From: Thermoanaerobaculia bacterium
Lineage (GTDB): Bacteria > Acidobacteriota > Thermoanaerobaculia > UBA5066
Length of the DNA: 64,000 nt
Assembly (NCBI GenBank): GCA_048500275.1
Contig: JASNYI010000002.1
Coordinates: 347,936 to 411,935, forward strand
Direction: 5' to 3'
The position numbers were made by a program, and so were the translations under genes. Positions 16,477 to 16,536 of this stretch are shown here, piece after piece. Positions within the stretch are counted from its first letter, which is position 1. Each line of letters opens with the position of its first letter. The notes beneath the pieces are model-generated. The model was not told the DNA's origin, did no database searches, and worked only from the letters and a program-made list of their open reading frames with translations.

Positions 16477-16520
16477 CGTCGTCTCCTCCTCGAGTCCCGG
16501 TCTTGATCTGACCCGAGAAC

Positions 16521-16536
16521 GCCAGAATCGTGCCAG
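16521..16536 (-). promoter_or_regulatory. Sigma-54-like promoter element upstream of protease 1
   Basis: Minus strand TGGCACGATTCTGGC: GG-N10-GC spacing is exact, one mismatch to TTGC at -14. About 45 nt upstream of the TTG start. Confidence 0.45.

Follow-up and report, generated by a model that had tools for sequence, protein, structure and literature searches.

The window analysed here, a stretch of 64,000 nucleotides (64 kb) from a Thermoanaerobaculia bacterium, carries two tandem genes on the minus strand that encode metallopeptidases of family M43 (pappalysin/ulilysin type). Peptidase 1 (15517..16476, minus strand) comprises 319 amino acids, begins with TTG and matches PF05572 with an E value of 2.4e-16; its tandem paralogue, peptidase 2 (16801..17754, minus strand), comprises 317 amino acids and also begins with TTG. 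The two proteins are 71% identical in a pairwise alignment. Membership in family M43 is indicated both by the PF05572 scores of the two products (60.5 and 66.3 bits, against a cut-off of 23) and by the zinc motif HExxHxxGxxH, which is visible as HEVGHWLGLYH in peptidase 1 and as HEVGHWMGLYH in the other copy. The N-terminus of peptidase 1 is a signal-peptide-like segment, as judged by eye in the alignment of the paralogues. The nearest relatives of solved structure are mirolysin (E value of 2e-28) and ulilysin (E value of 1e-20), both M43B pappalysin-family metzincins, and the likeness of the window product to them covers the catalytic domain only. In the wider locus (12284..19162, minus strand) a glycosyltransferase gene (GT4), the M43 peptidase genes and a MacAB-type exporter occur in an order that is conserved but variable when the window is compared with the related loci L164, L165, L167 and L168: the M43 gene is duplicated in the window, L081 and L164 and present as a single copy in L165, L167 and L168, and the exporter is missing from L168.

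Both peptidase genes are followed by strong hairpins. The terminator hairpin after peptidase 1 (15462..15489, minus strand; -26.9 kcal/mol, z = -4.1) has a T-rich tail, and that after peptidase 2 (16741..16774, minus strand; -34.8 kcal/mol, z = -6.3) is kept with compensatory changes in L081 and L164. Since such hairpins lie 3' of both genes, gene 1 would need a promoter of its own, and each M43 gene is, as predicted from these signals, a separate transcription unit. The genes further downstream, for an HlyD-type adaptor, a MacB-type permease and an ABC ATPase (12284..15372), lie beyond the peptidase 1 terminator; exporter genes are absent from L168 and L082, and they are therefore not an obligatory part of the M43 unit. 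Translation of gene 1 is served by a strong Shine-Dalgarno sequence, GAGGAGGAG, at 16491..16483 (minus strand). A simple scan gave no match to a sigma-70-type promoter at the M43 genes, and an Rfam search returned no credible RNA element in the M43 region. An ECF-like pair, GAAAC...CGTC, picked out by eye in front of copy 1, was rejected because of its wrong spacing and lack of conservation.

In front of each gene lies an element of the sigma-54 type. The first-pass annotation had described, about 45 nt before the TTG start of peptidase 1, a motif with exact GG-N10-GC spacing and one mismatch to the TTGC box, and had pointed to a near-identical element before the paralogue; both descriptions are borne out by the sequence. 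The -24/-12 element of peptidase 1 is the 18-mer CTGGCACGATTCTGGCGT at 16519..16536 (minus strand), whose core reads TGGCACGATTCTGGC on the minus strand at 16535..16521, with the GG at 16534/16533 and the GC at 16522/16521, in the context cagcc-TGGCACGATTCTGGC-gttctc. That of peptidase 2 is the 18-mer ATGGCACGCTTCTCGCTC at 17804..17821 (minus strand), with the core TGGCACGCTTCTCGC at 17820..17806. The GG-N10-GC spacing, which is the geometry of sigma-54 promoters, is exact in both elements, and the C of the GC lies 45 nt from the TTG of gene 1 (at 16476) and 52 nt from that of gene 2. Both elements are intergenic and oriented with their gene. The sole mismatch of the gene 1 element to TGGCAC-N5-TTGC is a G at -14; in the two elements of the window this base is G or C, never T, while among aligned published promoters T occupies the position in 90% and another base in 10%.

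Both elements were scored with a sigma-54 matrix derived from 162 aligned published promoters (S2 Table of PMC12316311), a set assembled from the Barrios 1999 compilation, EcoCyc, RegPrecise and DBTBS; the alignment was seeded on the consensus, which gives the matrix a slight bias to consensus-like columns. Scoring with a sigma-54 position weight matrix, for example that of the Barrios compilation, had been proposed as a check in the first-pass annotation, and the two sites proved to be the two top scores of the window. Against a background of the window base composition the gene 2 site reaches 15.8 bits (rank 1) and the gene 1 site 15.0 bits (rank 2), the ranking extending over both strands of the whole 64 kb, and first-order Markov simulations give an expectation of 0.075 chance sites of at least 15 bits per window on both strands. 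With a uniform background the scores are 14.9 bits (gene 1) and 15.7 bits (gene 2), which place the two sites at the 47th and 55th percentile when sites are drawn from the matrix of the 162 promoters. The same scoring assigns 14.7 bits to Caulobacter flgI and 16.6 bits to E. coli glnAp2, so that the window sites are comparable to flgI, lie just under glnAp2 and fall within the published range. An approximate sigma-54 matrix gave the same picture. The two window copies are related by duplication and do not represent independent observations.

Conservation was followed in homologous loci drawn from genome and metagenome collections (163, among the matches listed), and was extended to five larger syntenic loci (L164-L168), to L169, which is a short duplicate, and to L170 and L171, two loci that surround the activator gene described below. 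A search of 250 nt upstream on the coding strand, applied to the 152 homologous genes with usable upstream sequence, found a site of at least 12 bits in 21 of them, compared with 1 in the reverse complement of the same upstream regions and 2 in coding sequence of equal length. Nearly all of these sites lie 43-76 nt before the start codon. None of the 32 Actinomycetota loci has a site of at least 12 bits. To our knowledge this phylum lacks sigma-54, and its 32 loci therefore serve as a useful negative control.

The closest relatives form a clade defined by the TTG start, with an MNAKP N-terminus in all but two members, which comprises the two window copies, L081, L082/L083, L084, L085, L087, L164 (both copies), L165/L166, L167 and L168/L169. 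Every member has TGGCA(C/T)G-N4-CT(G/C)GC, situated 44-52 nt before the start codon. A global MAFFT alignment of the paralogue upstream regions put the motifs out of register, and motif-anchored alignments were used instead. In the anchored alignment of 11 close or syntenic upstream regions, the consensus of which is TGGCAcG.ttCT.GCt, the 16-mer motif holds 1.67 bits per column, against 0.65 in the 45 nt upstream and 0.45 in the 20 nt downstream; the -24 and -12 boxes are kept in these 11 regions while spacer and flanks vary, and L168 agrees. The core in L081, an orthologue of 95% identity, is the same as that of the peptidase 1 element, and L087 has the same 16-mer as the peptidase 2 element. 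L082, an orthologue of 80% identity, has retained the motif in entirely different genomic surroundings. Retention extends to relatives of 62% protein identity, in which the flanks have diverged and carry indels, and more distant homologues keep TGGCA-N6-TGCT with a different spacer. In each syntenic locus of about 21 kb, hits of at least 14 bits are confined to one site before the M43 gene and one before a gene for a small PF14407 peptide. In L164 (15 kb) the site of copy 1 reaches 18.4 bits, and that of copy 2 only 11.6 bits. A motif kept between diverged flanks is the pattern that selection on a sigma-54 promoter would be expected to leave, rather than the passive inheritance of a duplicated string.

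Farther upstream, each gene is preceded by an array of GGGTC/GACCC repeats. For gene 1 this array consists of an exact 17-bp palindrome, GGGTC-N7-GACCC, at 16618..16634 (minus strand), centred near -117; a degenerate half-site of the GGGTCA type, reading TGGTCA, at 16610..16615 (minus strand), 2 nt after the palindrome; and a proximal TGACCC at 16565..16570 (minus strand), 29 nt before the T of TGGCA (about -61 to -56). For gene 2 the palindrome GGGTC-N7-GACCC lies at 17920..17904, the GGGTCA half-site after it at 17901..17896 and the proximal TGACCC at 17855..17850, upstream of the -24/-12 element (all on the minus strand); an extra GACCC at 17845..17841 (minus strand) has no gene 1 counterpart. 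Relative to the predicted start the array occupies about -125 to -101 and -61 to -56. The palindrome is kept in ten of the twelve close upstream regions, the exceptions being L164b (the second copy in L164) and L167, and across relatives the GGGTCA half-site follows it at a distance of 0-3 nt (aligned block GACCC-N0-3-GGGTCA). TGACCC is exact and spaced by N29 in nine of the 11 anchored regions; L164b has N28 and L165 a single substitution (TGGCCC), and L168, taken separately from these 11 regions, matches as well.

The array and the sigma-54-type site occur together. An exact palindrome is found upstream of 8 of the 20 homologous genes that have a well-placed site versus none of the 132 that do not, and at least two TGACCC/GGGTCA hexamers precede 11 of 21 genes with a site versus 2 of 131 without one. 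The composite TGACCC-N27-31-TGGCA occurs twice in the window, versus 0.05 expected, and all its matches in the 171 fetched loci are found a short way upstream of M43 genes; across all sequence examined, this composite signature stands only in front of M43 genes. In homologues at 51-58% identity the promoter has the form TGGCA-N6-TGCT, and two or three TGACCC/GGGTCA sites are kept upstream of it; the homologues with a taxon label are Thermoanaerobaculia or unclassified Acidobacteriota, and the rest are unlabelled metagenome contigs. NtrC-family activators (Fis-type HTH) classically bind to sites arranged in this way, with a 17-bp palindrome near -117 and half-sites in an auxiliary role, and by this analogy the array looks like a candidate enhancer for an activator protein, one that we read as dedicated to these genes. 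The proximal TGACCC, at about -58, is nearer to the promoter than most characterised enhancers. One other exact palindrome in the window, at 54049..54065 inside a GGDEF gene, and a cluster of the pentamers inside the PF14407 coding sequence were judged to be chance or codon-driven.

A second subgroup of homologues (L035, L107, L132, L137 and L156) has sigma-54-like sites of the type TGGAAC-N6-CTGCT at a distance of 43-55 nt from the start codon, and TGACCC sites are absent; L035 carries the label Myxococcales, and the others are unlabelled metagenome contigs. This subgroup presumably uses another activator. Its existence suggests that M43 genes came under the control of sigma-54 independently, or in parallel through a different activator.

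The sigma-54 reading put forward in the first-pass annotation is supported by the matrix score, by the selective conservation of the -24/-12 boxes and by the conserved array of palindrome and half-sites upstream, and it is very probable that each of the tandem M43 genes has its own sigma-54-dependent promoter. The window element has every sequence-level property of such a promoter. In the mechanism that we propose, sigma-54 RNA polymerase would bind TGGCACG-N4-CT(G/C)GC (GG at -24, GC at -12) and persist there as a closed complex. An enhancer-binding protein of the NtrC type would bind the 17-bp palindrome GGGTC-N7-GACCC at about -117, the GGGTCA half-site beside the palindrome and the phased TGACCC near -58 would help the protein to assemble as a hexamer, and ATP hydrolysis by this activator would open the promoter. 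At sigma-54 promoters transcription starts 11-13 nt downstream of the GC; the predicted start of gene 1 is near 16509 (16507..16511, minus strand), with a leader of about 33 nt, and that of gene 2 is near 17794. The products would be monocistronic mRNAs that begin with a leader of about 33-40 nt, are translated from a TTG served by a strong Shine-Dalgarno sequence and end in a hairpin terminator, and production of the protease would be off unless the signal of the activator is present. We infer sigma-54 dependence, the start sites and the role of the palindrome and half-sites as activator-binding sites from sequence and its comparison among relatives.

Two other explanations of the elements were weighed against this one. 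The rank of the two sites as the best matrix scores of the window and the enrichment of homologous upstream regions over controls (21 versus 1 and 2) are difficult to reconcile with a GC-rich string that arose by chance, or that was copied at the gene duplication and inherited passively without having decayed yet. GG...GC strings do arise readily in high-GC DNA, other similar stretches are still common to the two upstream regions, and a consensus search with one mismatch allowed is not significant on its own (3 hits versus 0.86 expected, with 5 of 100 shuffles reaching 3); conservation of the motif down to 62% protein identity, including the different context of L082, nevertheless largely refutes this account, to which we give hardly any credence. 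It is also improbable, if less extremely so, that TGGCACG...GC is the operator of an ordinary transcription factor or a promoter of another class, for example ECF, with transcription arising from elsewhere. The sigma-70 and ECF promoters of Acidobacteriota are poorly defined and could be missed by a simple scan, and the surrounding GGGTC/GACCC repeats suggest that at least one sequence-specific protein binds here, but the invariant positions are exactly those contacted by sigma-54 (TGGCA, the G at -20 and the GC at -13/-12) and the spacer is free; distant homologues keep only TGGCA-N6-TGCT, with their own spacer, and the motif is absent in Actinomycetota.

The window also encodes a sigma-54 enhancer-binding protein, as the first-pass annotation had stated. 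The gene (29476..33417, plus strand) specifies 1313 amino acids, with an AAA+ domain containing GAFTGA and an HTH_8 domain. The protein is unusually large, and its approximately 1000 N-terminal residues match only a weak TPR hit; the gene follows an EPSP synthase gene in all loci seen. Full-length homologues at 64-79% identity were found, those with a named source being from Thermoanaerobaculia or Holophagales, and homologues in the same lineages are named sigma-54-interacting regulators; the names of these homologues place the window in Acidobacteriota. An intact GAFTGA activator gene points to the presence of sigma-54 in the genome; no rpoN was found among the annotated genes of the window, the annotation of which is partial. 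The distance between the activator gene and the M43 genes is about 12 kb here and about 15 kb in a relative. No activator gene lies within 2-10 kb of an M43 gene in any relative examined or within 10 kb of it in L165, L167 and L168, and a GAFTGA search of the 163 loci found none near the genes with sigma-54 sites.

The first-pass annotation implied that this TPR-containing protein is itself the activator of a sigma-54-dependent M43 promoter, and we consider the assignment unlikely. It would draw on an intact gene with both GAFTGA and an HTH_8 DNA-binding domain, on full-length orthologues in the same lineages and on the nearness of the two genes in a relative too, where about 15 kb separate them. 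Proximity is not specific, however, because tens of kilobases are syntenic in these relatives, and the M43 orthologue in L082 lies in an unrelated context. The activator gene has neither a GGGTC-N7-GACCC site nor a sigma-54 promoter next to it, enhancer-binding proteins are probably numerous in such genomes, and the window contains at least one more candidate sigma-54 promoter, in front of the PF14407 gene, that has no TGACCC sites.

For the M43 promoters as we read them, sigma-54-dependent and enhancer-controlled, E. coli glnAp2 (TGGCACAGATTTCGCT) offers a close likeness, being a -24/-12 promoter whose -12 box is not TTGC (TCGC in glnAp2). Its activator, which has an HTH_8 domain, acts from 17-bp palindromic sites upstream and from weaker sites close to the promoter. 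The glnAp2 promoter differs in host and function, serving nitrogen assimilation in E. coli through the enhancer TGCACC-N5-GGTGCA, whereas the window promoter precedes a secreted metalloprotease gene and is accompanied by GGGTC-N7-GACCC; glnAp2 is also proven experimentally, whereas the window promoter is known from sequence alone. The -12 boxes of the TCGC type in the published list belong to glnA of E. coli, Klebsiella and Proteus, hrpL of P. syringae and dhuA of Salmonella. The TGGC box of gene 1 has its precedents there in Caulobacter crescentus flgI (TGGCCCGCTTCTGGCA) and Herbaspirillum seropedicae nifB (TGGCACGGTTTTGGCT) (Barrios 1999 compilation; PMC12316311, S2 Table), and the nifB sequence is one base away from TGGCACGGTTCTGGCT of the orthologue L084. 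These two are flagellar and nitrogen-fixation genes of Proteobacteria with known activators, FlbD or NifA. Natural promoters with G or C at -14, such as those proposed here, would extend the known range of sigma-54 variants.

The promoter is of an ordinary, conventional kind, although both the lineage and the gene class in which it is found have been little studied; what is modestly new is the proposed enhancer motif, together with an apparently dedicated regulon. We lean towards the view that the -24/-12 element and the GGGTC-N7-GACCC/TGACCC array define an undescribed regulon with a dedicated activator, which would gate the production of secreted M43 proteases in Thermoanaerobaculia-like Acidobacteriota and some related uncultured lineages. 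The activator of such a regulon would recognize the 17-bp GGGTC/GACCC palindrome, and the candidate enhancer motif with its phased TGACCC could be used to find both the cognate activator and its signal. A secreted protease would fit the theme announced in the title of Francke et al. (2011; PMC3162934), in which sigma-54 is said to control functions of the bacterial exterior; Acidobacteria and peptidases are not mentioned in the main text of that article, and a cross-phylum regulon survey of 2025 (PMC12316311) likewise does not mention Acidobacteria, peptidases or metalloproteases in its main text. In the searchable literature we met with neither an M43 protease under sigma-54 control nor a sigma-54 regulon of Acidobacteriota. 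Since few Acidobacteriota have been cultured, their transcriptional regulation has hardly been studied, and the locus would offer a clean and comparatively supported case of an extracellular protease governed by sigma-54 in this phylum. A switch for extracellular proteolysis would be relevant to how carbon and nitrogen from protein are turned over in soils and sediments.

Two further sites in the window resemble sigma-54 promoters. The sequence CTGGCACGGCCCTTGACA at 8943..8960 (minus strand; 13.4 bits) lies 26 nt before the ATG of an ORF (8660..8917, minus strand) for an 85-residue PF14407 protein (Frankia_peptide / Nif11-like leader). Syntenic PF14407 genes have sigma-54-type sites of 15.0-18.7 bits, often with A or T replacing the C of the GC. 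There are no TGACCC sites in the region upstream of the PF14407 gene, and a different activator is therefore likely. The other site, ATGGCCCACAATGTGCAA at 21462..21479 (plus strand; 14.6 bits), is situated in a divergent intergenic region, 70 nt before the ATG (21547) of a gene for a hypothetical protein of 212 amino acids with a signal-peptide-like N-terminus. No counterpart of at least 11 bits was found in L165, L167 or L168, and the site may be lineage-specific or a chance match.

Additional features were observed in the predicted 5' leaders and at the translation starts. An inverted repeat, ACCGG-N3-4-CCGGT, is present in the predicted leader of the M43 copy-2 type (17775..17795 in the window, minus strand) and also in L084, L087, L164 (copy a), L165 and L167, with the pairing kept as the sequence changes; it is absent from copy-1-type leaders. 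It could form a 5' stabilizing stem-loop, and the hairpin of the window copy-2 leader is insignificant in the single sequence (z = -0.6). The Shine-Dalgarno region, the TTG and the first 30 or so nucleotides of the coding sequence (TTGAACGCCAAGCCCCTTCTGGCC) are nearly identical at the nucleotide level down to 64% protein identity, the corresponding regions in the window being 16440..16495 and 17720..17772 (both minus strand). This conserved stretch includes a CTT leucine codon, which is expected to be unusual at the GC content of the window, and its near-identity suggests that the translation initiation region is under constraint.
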